56,702 nucleotides of DNA from Enterobacteria phage 9g, in sequence record NC_024146.1. One strand, given 5' to 3'. Positions 8,281-25,903 of this stretch are shown in pieces; position 1 is the first letter of the stretch, and each line of letters opens with the position of its first letter. The translations under genes were made by a program, and so were the position numbers. The notes below the pieces were generated by a model that made no database searches, had not been told where the DNA came from, and saw only the letters and a program-made list of their open reading frames with translations.

Positions 8281-9105
8281 TTACTCTGCAGTTTTCTGAG
8301 ACGGAATTTCTACGTTAGCGGCCGCTTGTGCAATATTAGCAGGTACTGGAACGGATACGCGACCAGTAATGCCCATGTATTTCTTCCAGCGAGCGTATTC
8401 CGCTTTGACGTTCGCTTCGTTCAGGCCTTTGTCCAGTGCAACAGGCAGAACGTAGCTGATCGGCGCAGTCTGACCGAGCTCCAGGGTCACAGCGTCAAAG
8501 ATATCCCATGCAGCACGGCACAGAGTACCGACACCTGGCTTGCGAATACCGTTCTGTTCAGGCTCTTTCTTAGCTTCGCGTTCTGCTGCTTTACGAGCAC
8601 GCTCTTCGTCCTGCAGACGTTTCTTCTCAGCGCGTTGTGCGTCACGTTGCGCTTTTTCAGCGGCCTTAGTGGCTTCGCGGGCAGCGGATACACGACCTTT
8701 AACATCTTTCAGAGTGGATTCAATGGAGGAAACCAGATCTTCAGATGCTGCAACGGCAGTTTTCAGCTGATCGTTGTCTTTAACTTTACGTGCTGCCGCT
8801 TTAACAGCTTTCAGACCTTCTTTAGCGGTCTTCAGTTGAGCGGTAACTACGCCTTCAACTGCTTTAACTTCGTCCAGCAATGAACCTTCGTTCAGGGTCG
8901 CGAACTGTTCTTTAACAGCGGACACAGCACCTTCGATCACATTGTAACCGGCAGTGGCTTCGTTCAATGCGGCGTCAACTTTAGCCTGCAATTCACGTGC
9001 TGCTTTTTCTTCAGCTTCACGTTTTTTCTTTGCTTCAGCTTCTTTTGCTGCTTTCTTTGCTGCTTCTTCTGCTTCCAGTTGTTCTGGAGTTTTCTCTTTA
9101 GCCAT
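8281..9105 (-). CDS. Hypothetical coiled-coil protein (Ala/Glu/Lys-rich)
   Basis: 274 aa, ATG at 9105 with GAGGAT upstream; N-terminal ~190 aa are a low-complexity helical A/E/K repeat. Confidence 0.6.
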   Translation of the reverse strand: MAKEKTPEQLEAEEAAKKAAKEAEAKKKREAEEKAARELQAKVDAALNEATAGYNVIEGAVSAVKEQFATLNEGSLLDEVKAVEGVVTAQLKTAKEGLKAVKAAARKVKDNDQLKTAVAASEDLVSSIESTLKDVKGRVSAAREATKAAEKAQRDAQRAEKKRLQDEERARKAAEREAKKEPEQNGIRKPGVGTLCRAAWDIFDAVTLELGQTAPISYVLPVALDKGLNEANVKAEYARWKKYMGITGRVSVPVPANIAQAAANVEIPSQKTAE

Positions 9106-18794: not shown

Positions 18795-18829
18795 CGCCCA
18801 CTCCTTAAATCTTAATGGTAAACTGGAAG

Positions 18830-19027
18830 TTAAAAGAACGTACCAGTAAGCACATACAGCACAGCGTCGCGCAGTGTTGGCAACAAAGGCGAACATTTAG
18901 GAACGCTGTAGAATTTACGTGATCCCACTTTAACACTCACTATTGTAATAGAACGTTTATTGCGCTCTACTGCGTGGAGACCACCACCGAGACGACGAAC
19001 TTTATATAGAGGTTGATGCTTTTGCAT
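18830..19027 (-). CDS. Small basic hypothetical protein
   Basis: 65 aa, ATG at 19027 with AAGGAG 8 nt upstream. Confidence 0.5.
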   Translation of the reverse strand: MQKHQPLYKVRRLGGGLHAVERNKRSITIVSVKVGSRKFYSVPKCSPLLPTLRDAVLYVLTGTFF

Positions 19028-19044
19028 GTTTTAACTCCTTTCAT

Positions 19045-19323
19045 TTATTTACTGACACGTATAGCTTTACCTGTTAAGAAGGTGTACCCACAGTGCCGCA
19101 TTAAGTCACGTTCTTCTATTACACTTCGTAACTGGCGTGACAGCGTTTCATAGTAAGGACGGACCTCGTTCCTACTAATAGCTAAAGCATAGGCGAACAG
19201 TTGTTCCGAGTCAATACGATTAGACTTGATTCTTTGGATTGCCTGCTCAATTCCTGGGAACTCCTCATCCTGGTACAGAGCACCGTACACAATTTTAATA
19301 GCTGCTAGATTGTAACTGGACAT
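19045..19323 (-). CDS. Hypothetical protein
   Basis: 92 aa, ATG at 19323 with GAGGG upstream. Confidence 0.55.
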   Translation of the reverse strand: MSSYNLAAIKIVYGALYQDEEFPGIEQAIQRIKSNRIDSEQLFAYALAISRNEVRPYYETLSRQLRSVIEERDLMRHCGYTFLTGKAIRVSK

Positions 19324-19358
19324 TTAACCCTCGGACGTAAAATAATTCGTGATACCTA

Positions 19359-19386
19359 TTGCATTCCTAAGGAAATGCTCTATAGT
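19359..19386 (+). promoter_or_regulatory. Candidate sigma70-type promoter (-35 TTGCAT, 16-bp spacer, -10 TATAGT)
   Basis: TTGCAT 19359-19364, TATAGT 19381-19386, followed by GGAGGA and the ATG at 19422. Confidence 0.4.
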
Positions 19387-19421
19387 ATGTATTATACAGT
19401 TTGTAAGCGGAGGAACACAAA

Positions 19422-19652
19422 ATGACTCACCAAGATCTTATAAAAAGAAACATCAGAACTGCAATGAACAAATCAGAGGAATTTTCACACAACTGTACTG
19501 ATGGTACTCATAAAATTAGATACGAATATATGGGATCCTCAACTGTGGTTACATTTGAGAAAGATGAGTATCACGTTGGAGATTTTTCAACACCAGATTA
19601 TGACGAGATGTTTGAATACGTTGTATGTGGGTTCTTAGAGTTGCACGAATAA
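19422..19652 (+). CDS. Hypothetical protein (lone plus-strand gene within the minus-strand block)
   Basis: 76 aa. Own promoter-like element, strong SD (GGAGGA), and a terminator directly downstream. Confidence 0.6.
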   Translation: MTHQDLIKRNIRTAMNKSEEFSHNCTDGTHKIRYEYMGSSTVVTFEKDEYHVGDFSTPDYDEMFEYVVCGFLELHE

Positions 19653-19656
19653 TATA

Positions 19657-19686
19657 ATGGGCGCATATAGCGCCCATTTTTTTTAT
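19657..19686. terminator. Bidirectional Rho-independent terminator
   Basis: atgggcgc(19657-19664) / gcgcccat(19670-19677), 8-bp stem, 5-nt loop, then T9 on the plus strand; A/T-rich flank on the other side. Lies between convergent genes 19422..19652 (+) and 19683..22058 (-). Confidence 0.6.
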
Positions 19687-22058
19687 AGCTTAATAATCTT
19701 CTCCATGCGTTCGATATCCACTAAATAACACTTCATCCTCGGTGGTACAAAATCAGGACCGAATAAACTTGAGAAGTCCATAGGCCTCATTTCAGCAAGA
19801 ACTTCCATAGACATCAGACCATAAATTGTATTGTCTATGACCTGCAATATGTTGTCGTTTCTTGTCTGCTTGAACGCTTTAAATTGCCTACAATAAGTAC
19901 ATAAATCACTCCGTGTAACTATAAACGAGTCCTTAAACATTGGGAATTTATCATACACATAAGCCTTCACTTCTCCGTCCAAGAATCTTTTTATAGTCGC
20001 GAGCATTATCTTCTCACGGCTTGTACTATCTGTAGACCCAATTTGCCCACTGTTACGCTTCTCTAAGAAACGCTCGTTACCCTGATCGATAAATGACTCA
20101 GCCCAACGATAATGTTCCATAGTAACAACGGGTCGTTCACTGTTATCCGCAACAGCAAGAAGAGAAGCTATACGCAATACCTTCAACGCCTTCCTTGTGT
20201 ACATCTGACGAATTACTTCGTCTTGCACCTGCTCACCATCGTTGCCGCTGTTCAGGAACTTCGCAACAACATTATCAAGATTATCAAACGCTTCGTGTAC
20301 CTCTGCTTCCATTTCAACATAACACGGAGCAGTCCCTGACATAATACGCACAGCTTGTTTATAGATAGCTCCAATAGTGCGCAGAATTGCTTCTGGATAT
20401 TCCAGGAGCATACTCTTATTCATCAACGGGCGGTTAGCTGTACATTCCCATGCGATAATACGGGACATGAAGCCACTAGACATCATACGGTCATCCACGT
20501 TCCCGTAAAATTCATCTGGTGTTGTTTCACCTGCAAAACTATACGCCTTAACCTTACCACCAGCAGTCGTATTATCTTTACTAGAGTGCTTTGAACCACC
20601 AGAGAAAGCATAGAAATGCCCCTTGTCATAAAGGGAAAGCATTTCATCCATAATGTCTTTAGCTTTACCAACTTCCATCTTACCGTTACGGAAAAACGCA
20701 CCGACTTCAGTCTTATAGTTGATGGATGAGCCACAAGACATAACGGACGTATCCATTATGACGTCCTTGCGCAATGCAGCATCAGACGCATAGGTACTTG
20801 TATCTAGGACACGTTCAATACCAAATATCTGCTGACCGTCTTGACCGCCATAATTGGATACTTGAGAAAGAATAGTTTCAATGTTAGAGCGAAACGCTTC
20901 TTTACCAATACCAGAACGTGCAATTAATACAAAGTAGTTATTCAAACCACTTCGTGTGACTGTGTTCCACGCCTTACCGCACATACCACTAAATAAAGCA
21001 AGAGCAGACAGAATACTAATGTCTTTAATAGGCAACAAGCTCGCTTTATACATATTACGCGCAACCTCGCCCATAAAGCCCGGAGGCCAAGCCAAACCGT
21101 CTGCCTGCTCTTCAGTGTAATTACCATCTGTGGTCAACACTTCTTCAGGTGGGCGTTCTGGTGTAGTTGCTTGACGTAGTTTTTCCGTGCGCTCTATAGC
21201 TGCATTAACGTTATTCTGAACTATCTGCATAAGTCCCATAGATTTAACATGGGCATCATAACGATAGTTGCGAATCATTCTATCCAGGTGATACGGACGT
21301 TTAATTTTTTCACCAGGCATACGACGGGAATCATCATAACGACTACTCATTGGTGAATACATGAATAGACGTCTTACCTGGAAATTGTACTTACTCTTAA
21401 AGCAAAGAAAGTCAATTAATGCAAATTCTGCTTCAGACTGAGAAGGGAAACAACGTTCGCCGATAGAAGTATCAACTTCTTCAGCTCTCCAACGACCTTC
21501 CCATAGCTGCTTAAACAATGTTCCGTTTTCTTGTTCGCACAGCTGGATATAGACATCCTGGTCTTCCATTGCATATGGGTCGTTACTAAAATCTTCTTCA
21601 GTAAGTTCCAGCATTTGGAAGCCATCAGACTCATTAATCTCACTCATCTCAGACATAAGTTGATGAATGAGATTAGCGATATACCCTTCGCTTTCACTGC
21701 CTGGAGCACCAGACACAATACGCGGAGTAATATCCCAGTGATCGCCTGTACAGATAATAAAACGATACTGCGAATACACTTCCACACCATCACGGCGCTT
21801 ACCAGCCTGAGGGATGGAATAAATCCATGTATGCAACCCATCACCACTTCTGGAAATTTCCGTATAGCTATGGAACGATTCAACAATCTTCTTATATCGC
21901 TCACCAGCAACTTTCTTTTCCATTTCAGACATGGTATCTTTAATGTCCATGTCTATACAACAGAACGGGTCACTTGGAAGTAGATAGAAACCTAAACGCA
22001 AGTTATGGCCAATCTCGTTATAATAACGAACGCAGCGTTCAGCATCTTCAAAAGACAT
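19683..22058 (-). CDS. Putative DNA primase (PrimPol/AEP-type N-terminal domain) with C-terminal NTPase-like region
   Basis: 791 aa. AEP motifs CIDMDIKD (DxD) and SRSGDGLHTWIY (sGxGxH); later LIARSGIGKE (P-loop-like). Confidence 0.6.
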   Translation of the reverse strand: MSFEDAERCVRYYNEIGHNLRLGFYLLPSDPFCCIDMDIKDTMSEMEKKVAGERYKKIVESFHSYTEISRSGDGLHTWIYSIPQAGKRRDGVEVYSQYRFIICTGDHWDITPRIVSGAPGSESEGYIANLIHQLMSEMSEINESDGFQMLELTEEDFSNDPYAMEDQDVYIQLCEQENGTLFKQLWEGRWRAEEVDTSIGERCFPSQSEAEFALIDFLCFKSKYNFQVRRLFMYSPMSSRYDDSRRMPGEKIKRPYHLDRMIRNYRYDAHVKSMGLMQIVQNNVNAAIERTEKLRQATTPERPPEEVLTTDGNYTEEQADGLAWPPGFMGEVARNMYKASLLPIKDISILSALALFSGMCGKAWNTVTRSGLNNYFVLIARSGIGKEAFRSNIETILSQVSNYGGQDGQQIFGIERVLDTSTYASDAALRKDVIMDTSVMSCGSSINYKTEVGAFFRNGKMEVGKAKDIMDEMLSLYDKGHFYAFSGGSKHSSKDNTTAGGKVKAYSFAGETTPDEFYGNVDDRMMSSGFMSRIIAWECTANRPLMNKSMLLEYPEAILRTIGAIYKQAVRIMSGTAPCYVEMEAEVHEAFDNLDNVVAKFLNSGNDGEQVQDEVIRQMYTRKALKVLRIASLLAVADNSERPVVTMEHYRWAESFIDQGNERFLEKRNSGQIGSTDSTSREKIMLATIKRFLDGEVKAYVYDKFPMFKDSFIVTRSDLCTYCRQFKAFKQTRNDNILQVIDNTIYGLMSMEVLAEMRPMDFSSLFGPDFVPPRMKCYLVDIERMEKIIKL

Positions 22059-22240
22059 AAGTAAATGCAGGTTAGACGGTTTCTTATCATTGCCGTCTTT
22101 ACGAAGTGGGACATATCCCCTAAATCATCGTCCCACACATAAGGTTGTTTTTCTGATGATGTACCTGGATGAAAACCGCAGACAGCCCACTGTTCGTATT
22201 GTTTAATTTCTTGAGGAAAAAGTTCCAGCATGTTATTACC

Positions 22241-24866: not shown

Positions 24867-25903
24867 AACCTCACCTTGATGATAATAAATCTGCTAATTT
24901 TGAAATTCAGTTGCCAAGTTTTAATTTATGCAAAGTTTTTGCTATTTGCAACTGTGATATTTTGCGGTGTTTGTATGTGCAATGTTTTTGCTTTTGCAAA
25001 AATTACAGCAGTCTGAAGGTGAGAAATTGCAAATTTATAAAGATCGGTGAAAAAATGCACAATTTATAAAGATCCCGTAATACATAAAACGGCGAAGCGA
25101 AGTGTATGAAAAATAAGGGAAAATTTCGAGGATTGGGAGGTTTGTATGAATTTATATTATTTATAAAGGGGTCCCGTAGGGGTCGTCAGTAGACAACTCA
25201 AAAATAAAAAATCTTTATAAAATTTATATAAATACACACATACACACATTTTTACCTTACTTTTCAAGCACTTACCTCCTTTCATTTTGTATATTAAGCG
25301 ACTATATATGAACAATATGACATATATTTGTTGCGCAACACCTGTGCGTTTTTTAACCAATCGAAAGATTGCTTTATATACGTCCGCGCGTCTAACACAA
25401 AAGAAAAGTGGATTGCAAGCGATTTTTGCTGAGGTAACTCTCGAAGTGAAAGCGATTTGCGAGTTTGAAATTTTGTAGCCCGAAAACGATTCTATTTTAT
25501 GGTATAAATGCCGGATTTTTCGGTGAAAGCCGGCTTTTCGGCGAGGTGGGGTGGCCGAGATCGGGGTGGCGAGTCGCCCATAAGGCGAAAATAGCCGCGA
25601 AAACGGGGCACACAGCGCGATTAAATGGTTGGATCAGTGTAAGGGTGGCGGTGAGGGGTGAAAATGCCCTAAAAACGCGTACAGGGAAGCAGGGAGCGGA
25701 TCGCTGTAAGGGCGTATAAAGCGAGCAAATTGGAGTCTATGGTAATGTACGGAAGAGGGATTCAGGTTCTTAGAGCGCGAATGGTGGTGCTATGGGTGAG
25801 GAATATGTGGTCAGCGGGGTAGCGCGGGAGGTTATGCAGGTACAAAGACGAAAACGCCCCGTTGGACTTCAACAGGGCGCGGATTGTATAATGCAGTTAG
25901 AAG
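24867..25903. promoter_or_regulatory. ~1-kb non-coding region: AT-rich motif-dense half (24867-25460) plus purine-skewed G-rich half (25460-25900)
   Basis: No ORF with a plausible start/SD. Repeated TTTGC(A/G)A motifs; direct repeat AATTTATAAAGATC at ~25027 and ~25059; many G-tracts on the plus strand. Role unknown. Confidence 0.4.

Follow-up and report, generated by a model that had tools for sequence, protein, structure and literature searches.

A genus-wide small gene facing the leftward arm of phage 9g, with predicted interleaved promoters at the junction of two operons

We examined a 76-amino-acid open reading frame (ORF) that runs against the direction of its neighbors in Enterobacteria phage 9g (NC_024146.1; the whole sequence of 56,702 nucleotides is called the window here), a 9g-type genome of the genus Nonagvirus (Queuovirinae). 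We read this ORF, with moderate confidence, as a genuine small gene that occurs throughout the genus at the junction of two leftward operons, is associated with predicted interleaved promoters, and may encode a protein-binding modulator. The original prediction had described the locus as a stand-alone cassette of a kind typical of morons or host-interaction genes; the gene stands, but its distribution points to a fixed part of the genome architecture and not to a recently acquired add-on. The features of the locus are as follows.

19279-19458, no strand assigned: ultra-conserved block with pairwise diversity of 0.015 or less
19359-19364, plus strand: -35-like hexamer TTGCAT of the predicted plus-strand promoter, invariant in Nonagvirus, with TTGCAA at the homologous position of phage K9PH25C2
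19361-19378, no strand assigned: imperfect palindrome GCATTCC-TAAG-GAAATGC in the promoter spacer, unique in the window
19381-19386, plus strand: -10-like hexamer TATAGT of the same promoter, 35 nucleotides before the ATG
19391-19396, minus strand: perfect -10 hexamer TATAAT of the predicted minus-strand promoter, reading TGTATAAT on that strand
19409-19413, plus strand: Shine-Dalgarno sequence GGAGG, 8 nucleotides before the ATG, part of the translation-initiation motif GGRGNWWYACAAAATG
19415-19420, minus strand: -35-like hexamer TTGTGT of the predicted minus-strand promoter, with an 18-nucleotide spacer and with TTGTAA-N18-TATAAT at the same place in K9PH25C2
19422..19652, plus strand: the 76-amino-acid ORF, taken from the ORF list, with an ATG start; phrog_17131, a 9g_00024-type hypothetical protein
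19532-19534, plus strand: GGG run, site of a +1 G frameshift in FritzHoffmann (Bas20) and one Logan contig
19583-19587, plus strand: T5 run, site of a -1 T frameshift in ENA/Logan contigs
19656-19684, no strand assigned: intrinsic terminator, with a hairpin at 19656-19678 followed by a T-run to 19684

We found that the ORF is present, with its ATG, as predicted, and that its pattern of selection is that of a real gene. In a nucleotide alignment of 13 Nonagvirus sequences, 65 of its 231 columns vary, with 13, 15 and 37 of these at codon positions 1, 2 and 3, respectively; pairwise ratios of nonsynonymous to synonymous substitution rates (dN/dS) range from 0.06 to 0.31, with dS up to about 1.0, and a 6-nucleotide indel in SP8, JenP2 and BRET is in frame. 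Because of the third-position excess, the dN/dS values and the in-frame indel, the alignment argues that the small ORF is a genuine protein-coding gene under purifying selection. Far from being absent or disrupted in all close relatives, the ORF has an intact copy in each of 12 GenBank genomes and nine IMG/VR loci (about 20 Nonagvirus genomes), and its position and orientation are identical across the orthologues (82-100% amino-acid identity), which carry the name '9g_00024' in the notes of related genomes.

The exceptions are three genomes with two independent homopolymer frameshifts, in all of which the cis elements are intact. The +1 G of Bas20 is also found in a Logan-assembled contig from a different sub-lineage, and the frameshifted alleles are borne by viable phage isolates. 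Because such natural alleles exist in three genomes, the small gene is dispensable. We also note that the BASEL GenBank records (Bas19, Bas20) annotate two short ORFs here in the wrong frame (L002 3450-3754 in FritzHoffmann; L005 1950-2239 in ChristophMerian). The annotation of Bas19 is an error, as its 76-amino-acid gene is actually intact, whereas Bas20 has a genuine +1 G frameshift.

The promoter-like element that had been proposed for the gene, TTGCAT-N16-TATAGT, is present at 19359-19386 and conserved, although its match to the sigma-70 consensus is weak (8/12) and it was missed by a generic promoter scan. About 25 Nonagvirus sequences carry it without variation, and Klebsiella phage K9PH25C2 has TTGCAA-N16-TATAAT (10/12) at the homologous position, with a diverged spacer; the positional counterparts of the -10 hexamer TATAGT are TATAAT in K9PH25C2, TATACT in Kpn2-P2 and TATAGT in Vid5. 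A scan of 700 nucleotides of K9PH25C2 returned exactly two matches, TTGCAA-16-TATAAT on the plus strand and TTGTAA-18-TATAAT on the minus strand (each 10/12), and the two coincide exactly in position with the 9g elements. We accept the plus-strand element as a predicted promoter on these phylogenetic grounds, because it is conserved in Nonagvirus and has a version closer to consensus at the homologous position of K9PH25C2.

The minus-strand element of 9g, TTGTGT-N18-TATAAT, matches the consensus at 9/12 positions and is interleaved with the first, such that its -35 hexamer sits between the Shine-Dalgarno sequence and the ATG of the small gene, 4 bp separate the two -10 hexamers, and the predicted start sites are about 9 bp from each other. 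Our scan found no other minus-strand candidate between the terminator and the start of the 'protease' gene at 19323. If the hairpin stops the primase transcript, then, since there is no other candidate, this second, overlapping promoter (19420-19391) probably drives the downstream operon from 19323. A different match, TGGACA-N18-AATAAT (19317-19346; 10/12), was considered as the main promoter and rejected, as neither of its hexamers is conserved in K9PH25C2. We also noted the hexamers of the small gene's promoter, as TTGCAT-N17-TATAGT, at 9189-9161 of the window; this minus-strand pair lies in the gap ahead of the gene at 8281..9105 and may act as an internal promoter within the leftward arm.

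The region that holds these elements is far more conserved than the synonymous sites of the small gene. Among the 13 aligned sequences, variable columns number 3 of 98 in the intergenic region and 1 of 30 in the terminator, compared to 65 of 231 in the ORF and 16 of 48 at the 3' end of the primase gene, and the ultra-conserved block takes in all of the intergenic region, flanked by the 5' end of the 'protease' gene on one side and the first 12 codons of the small gene on the other. When the upstream regions of K9PH25C2, Ec1-ASingh and Kpn2-P2 were aligned by eye, short conserved islands stood out from otherwise diverged sequence, namely CCTATTGCA in the -35 region, TATAAT/TATACT at the -10, ATTATACA, which covers the -10 region of the minus strand and is kept in all three, and ACAAAATG. 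The strong Shine-Dalgarno sequence that had been claimed can be read directly from the sequence. The motif that includes it, GGRGNWWYACAAAATG, has no second copy in the window, and each locus in Nonagvirus, Seuratvirus and Vid5 has a single copy, always at the small gene; this pattern was derived after the sequences had been viewed and is suggestive only. As a separate observation, the only window-specific changes in the otherwise invariant 98 nucleotides are at 19326 (A for G) and 19349 (G for T), where all other Nonagvirus sequences differ from 9g.

The terminator had been called strong and bidirectional, and this description holds in part. The small gene and the primase gene converge, with stop codons at 19650-19652 and 19683-19685, respectively, and the hairpin fills the 30 nucleotides that separate these codons. 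It has a 9-bp stem with six GC pairs and a deltaG of about -16.6 and -16.8 kcal/mol on the two strands (z = -3.0 and -3.8). The scan flagged it as terminator-like on both strands, each with a GC-rich hairpin and a U-tract. The plus-strand tail is a canonical U8, while the minus-strand tail, UUAUAUUAUUCG, is interrupted (7 U of 12), and termination in the minus direction is probably weaker. Thus, bidirectionality is plausible but asymmetric. The terminator has exact copies in nine IMG/VR loci and is annotated as such in HdSG1, HdK1 and SP8; a search of 18800-20000 against Rfam gave only sub-threshold matches, on the terminator.

The small gene stands alone in its orientation. The left arm of the genome (36-28114; 28 kb) is read leftward, on the minus strand, and comprises early or early/middle genes, the first to enter the cell (PMC4276943); the small gene is not discussed in that paper. 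The claim that this is the only plus-strand ORF in the minus-strand block is true of credible genes: in the collinear relative ESCO3, the small gene is the single plus-strand coding sequence (CDS) among 47 CDS of the leftward arm, and the remaining plus-strand ORFs of at least 70 amino acids within 36-28114 either overlap genes of the minus strand or fall within a region without annotation in relatives. The stretch 18900-20100 is 89-97% identical to 16 GenBank records, every one a Nonagvirus; these relatives include ESCO3, JenP1, JenK1, JenP2, HdSG1, HdK1, SE1, BRET, SP8, PD328 and BASEL phages Bas19 and Bas20. The upstream leftward operon ends with the primase gene, and the downstream operon begins at 19323 with the 'protease' gene, followed by a gene similar to N4 gp8 (PF25713), two genes away from the small gene, and then by genes for replication, nucleotide metabolism and 7-deazaguanine.

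We found the small gene at the same place in every Nonagvirus examined (16 GenBank records, nine IMG/VR loci, and Logan/ENA contigs). In Klebsiella phages K9PH25C2 and Kpn2-P2 and E. coli phage Ec1-ASingh, this slot is filled by a 32%-identical homologue, which lies between 'protease' and primase in the opposite orientation (shuffle z = 14 for the K9PH25C2-like homologue). Moreover, Seuratvirus, Vidquintavirus and Craquatrovirus have a small ORF that is convergent to the primase gene and comes directly after its stop codon, with a hairpin between the two.

Seuratvirus, convergent to primase: CAjan gp62 and GottfriedDienst bas21_0066, 74 amino acids
Vidquintavirus, convergent to primase: Vid5 ORF60, 73 amino acids
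Craquatrovirus, convergent to primase: PSTCR7 counterpart, 59 amino acids

All counterparts tested are acidic, with isoelectric points (pI) of 4.0-4.9. A comparable convergent small acidic ORF after the primase gene is thus found in four other groups (three genera and one unclassified group of Queuovirinae), and five phage groups share the architecture, in which a promoter-like -10 hexamer 30-35 nucleotides before the ATG and a strong Shine-Dalgarno sequence precede a short acidic ORF, and a hairpin abuts the primase stop codon. No convergent small ORF follows the primase gene in NP1, Iggy or EC151. Comparison of the 9g family to the syntenic proteins with hhalign gave E = 0.3 (Seuratvirus), 0.067 (Vid5) and 0.04 (PSTCR7); in shuffle tests, p was 0.055 for Vid5, and the remaining comparisons were not significant. 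These loci would represent either one gene that diverged very fast or one slot with different cargo.

The protein (9 kDa, pI 4.9, net charge -8) matches the hidden Markov model (HMM) of phrog_17131 over its full length (E = 1.7e-55, residues 1-76 of 76). Its N-terminal helix is basic and conserved, with the most conserved motif, NI[RK]xAMNK, and an invariant DYDxMF motif marks its acidic C-terminal half; protein motifs are kept across groups at 32% identity. Structure prediction, which had been suggested as a check, gave an AlphaFold2 model (14-sequence alignment) with a predicted local distance difference test score (pLDDT) of 81.5 and a predicted template modeling score (pTM) of 0.66. Its predicted elements (helix 3-18; strands 20-24, 29-36, 39-46, 49-52 and 55-57; helix 60-75) suggest an alpha-beta5-alpha fold in a soluble acidic protein. 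An independent BFVD model of a K9PH25C2-like homologue agrees with the 9g model (TM-score 0.88), and a fold search of BFVD returned only the family itself.

Sequence searches likewise returned no characterized relative. The 9g protein has no Pfam family even at E <= 1, no match in the NCBIfam and PADLOC defence-protein scans, and only noise (E >= 0.05) in a profile search of PDB sequences. A word-indexed search of 5.8 billion proteins and a full HMMER search of 1.8 billion representatives gave Nonagvirus-type matches only, once matches to repeat proteins were rejected, and a scan of IMG/VR with the family alignment found Nonagvirus loci only. The rejected candidates were long FG-GAP/VCBS-like repeat proteins (GGWHIGDFNGDGKDDIF compared to HVGDFSTPDYDEMF), whose score was summed over 5-6 repeats; the likeness is also undercut by the GDF part, which is not conserved in the K9PH25C2-like homologues.

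In the model that we favor, host sigma-70 RNA polymerase would transcribe the small gene from TTGCAT-N16-TATAGT, and this promoter, interleaved with the minus-strand TTGTGT-N18-TATAAT, would act as a two-way promoter that also starts the downstream operon. Since the promoter region would accommodate only one polymerase at once, the small gene and the downstream operon would be expressed in competition or in a coupled manner. The hairpin would end the small transcript and, less efficiently, the primase transcript, such that the cis elements probably serve three transcripts: the hairpin would end two (primase and small gene), and the promoters would start two (small gene and downstream operon). 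The protein itself would bind another protein, and we suggest, with low certainty, that it is probably a non-essential modulator of a host or phage factor, acting in host takeover, anti-defence, or the tuning of replication or transcription. We favor a protein-binding modulator because of the size, acidity, dispensability and neighborhood of the gene; an enzyme or a classical DNA-binding repressor is less likely.

Several points weigh against this reading. Both 9g promoters match the consensus at only 3 of 6 positions of the -35 hexamer, so that a generic scan with a rule of at least 4 of 6 per hexamer missed both, and a match of 8/12 is fairly frequent by chance alone. Literature searches found no transcript data for Queuovirinae, and those on Queuovirinae transcriptomics and on escape mutants of Bas19/Bas20 yielded nothing about the locus. 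The conservation of the intergenic region may partly reflect the 'protease' side, which is generally well conserved, and guilt by association with host-takeover neighbors, such as the gp8-like gene, is weak evidence of function. Finally, homology of the protein beyond the K9PH25C2-like group is not demonstrable, and 'one conserved slot' could apply instead of 'one conserved gene'.

We considered that the protein might instead be a DNA-binding regulator of the promoter pair, which is the main rival. In this case, a small transcription regulator, with an AP2-like or another DNA-binding fold of sheet plus helix, would be an autoregulated switch on the overlapping divergent promoters and would balance its own synthesis against the downstream operon. 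Such a switch would fit a gene that abuts an ultra-conserved region with interleaved promoters, as well as the imperfect palindrome in the promoter spacer and the basic N-terminal helix with its conserved motif, and the 9g paper noted closely spaced promoters and possible partial repression (PMC4276943). Nonetheless, we hold it to be possible but doubtful, given the overall acidity of the protein. The basic DNA-contacting surface of AP2 is not seen in the 9g protein, in which only the N-terminal helix is basic, and searches for DNA-binding Pfam families, including AP2, found none for the 9g, K9PH25C2 or Vid5 proteins even at E <= 1-10. The Seuratvirus counterpart does have an AP2 match (PF00847), which is sub-threshold (18.1 bits compared to a cut-off of 33.3), but hhalign shows no similarity of the 9g family to the CAjan family. 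Moreover, the palindrome, which might serve as an operator or form a hairpin at the 5' end of the leftward mRNA, is a weak lead that is not conserved in Kpn2-P2, and phages with the frameshifted alleles are viable isolates. On a larger proposal, which we think unlikely, the locus would be an ancient expression slot between two leftward operons of 7-deazaguanine-type siphoviruses, found in at least five groups, whose cargo has diverged beyond recognition or been swapped. Such a slot would combine a two-way promoter and a conserved leader with a short acidic ORF and a terminator that is shared, and its cargo would be an alpha/beta sandwich in Nonagvirus and of AP2-like fold in Seuratvirus. The cargo proteins would form one or more new families of small proteins that inhibit a host factor or a defence system, and promoter competition would time the switch to the downstream replication operon.

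The idea that the locus is a moron, a recently acquired and horizontally inserted autonomous cassette for an anti-defence, toxin or exclusion factor, drew on real features. The gene is compact, with its own promoter-like element, Shine-Dalgarno sequence and terminator, is oriented against the rest of the arm, is dispensable, and has a very narrow taxonomic range, with only Nonagvirus-type matches among the 5.8 billion and 1.8 billion proteins searched. Its GC content is 35.1%, compared to 42.9 +/- 3.2% for arm genes (range 35.0-52.0), and its GC at third codon positions is 32.5%, compared to 39.3 +/- 4.9%; the gene is thus somewhat AT-rich, yet its GC is inside the range of arm genes (minimum 35.0%). 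It does not, however, appear to stand alone: the promoter overlaps the predicted minus-strand promoter and the hairpin also follows the primase stop codon, so these signals are probably common to the flanking operons and would not be parts of a mobile unit. Nor is its distribution sporadic, the key criterion for a moron. The gene has an identical position in every Nonagvirus genome examined, a syntenic homologue in a different Queuovirinae group, the K9PH25C2-like phages, and positional counterparts with a similar leader in Seuratvirus, Vid5 (Vidquintavirus) and PSTCR7 (Craquatrovirus), while in about 25 genomes no close relative has the primase gene directly abutting the 'protease' gene. We therefore set the moron label aside as quite unlikely, though the protein may still have an anti-defence, toxin or exclusion function, and prophage expression is inapplicable, since 9g is virulent (PMC4276943). 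We judge as improbable the proposal, by loose analogy to small regulators of replication initiators, that the protein is an accessory factor of replication, acting together with the adjacent primase-helicase or holding it back. A small ORF is tied to the 3' end of the primase gene in five phage groups, at about 30 nucleotides and with a shared hairpin, and the gene on its other side varies between groups; against this, the related primases of NP1, Iggy and EC151 lack a neighbor of this kind, the linkage may be historical and not functional, and the proteins of different groups are not demonstrably homologous. It is more improbable still that the locus is mainly a cis-acting element, in which the peptide is incidental and what matters at the operon boundary is that transcription converges, promoters compete and transcripts end: the cis elements are indeed more conserved than the ORF and are intact in all three frameshifted genomes, but purifying selection on the frame is strong, and the protein motifs persist across groups at low identity.

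In the course of this analysis, we made several observations on other parts of these genomes. The second gene of the operon from 19323, a 65-amino-acid ORF at 18830..19027 on the minus strand, matches Pfam PF25713, 'Bacteriophage N4 DNA replication inhibitor' (gp8), with E = 4.8e-18, and is annotated only as 'hypothetical' in relatives; this match suggests that this siphovirus may shut down host DNA replication as N4 does. The primase-helicase gene, a single 849-amino-acid CDS in relatives, is split in the window into a 79-amino-acid N-terminal ORF (21992..22231) and a 791-amino-acid ORF (19683..22058), with one G fewer than ESCO3 near 22113 on the minus strand (GATATGGTCCC -> GATATGTCCC), which is either a sequencing error or a real frameshift. 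The gene is also annotated as two CDS in HdK1 (L006 2282-3940) and SE1 (L009 2282-4199), which suggests that it is frameshifted or interrupted in several Nonagvirus records. In the early arm, about 1 kb at 24867-25903 has no credible ORF, is 88-94% conserved in Nonagvirus and unannotated in ESCO3 and JenK1, and contains, at 25880-25854 on the minus strand, a strong hairpin that resembles a terminator; this stretch might serve as an origin, a region of regulatory RNA or a cluster of promoters. In the Seuratvirus CAjan, an unannotated 24-amino-acid hydrophobic ORF, MFEILKLFAGAIFVAGYFWFMYIL, with its own Shine-Dalgarno sequence, precedes gp61 on the strand of the downstream operon (L015 about 4838-4764) and is the first gene after the upstream region of the small convergent gene.

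The gene itself holds little surprise, as it was already annotated as a hypothetical protein; what is now better defined is its regulatory context. The 9g-type operon boundary becomes a testable model, a terminator followed by interleaved divergent promoters, and would bear on a transcription map of the Queuovirinae, which rely on host RNA polymerase throughout. The natural frameshift alleles (Bas20 compared to the intact Bas19) provide a starting comparison for the function of the protein on panels of defence systems, and the BASEL annotation of the locus needs correction of its frame. If the small acidic proteins of this slot do inhibit host or defence factors, it would be a conserved locus to search in related phages.

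The closest known relatives are the orthologues of phrog_17131 and '9g_00024' (JenP1 AKA60925.1, ESCO3_00031, HdSG1_00078), which are the family itself and show no difference. Compared to small acidic phage inhibitors (T7 Gp2, AcrIIA11, PsiB and the Rhs immunity protein TriTu), the 9g protein shows no significant match in sequence or fold. With proteins of the AP2/integrase-arm type (PF00847), as in CAjan gp62, it shares the genomic slot, a similar leader and a predicted antiparallel sheet followed by a C-terminal helix, and its motif VGDFSTPD resembles, in our own reading, the AP2 'LGTFxTxE' junction. Phage morons in the Hendrix/Juhala sense resemble the locus as promoter-gene-terminator units of opposite orientation and slightly low GC; unlike them, the 9g gene is fixed in its genus, syntenic across groups, and probably shares its cis elements with the flanking operons. 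The predicted promoter pair invites comparison to bidirectional sigma-70 promoters, overlapping divergent promoters that Warman et al. reportedly described in E. coli in 2021, and to the classical divergent pairs tetA/tetR and bioA/bioB. The 9g promoter-like elements likewise lie on opposite strands with interleaved core hexamers, such that both could not be occupied at once, and the pair is kept in two phage groups. Unlike symmetric overlapping pairs, the predicted 9g pair has adjacent -10 hexamers and predicted start sites about 9 bp apart.

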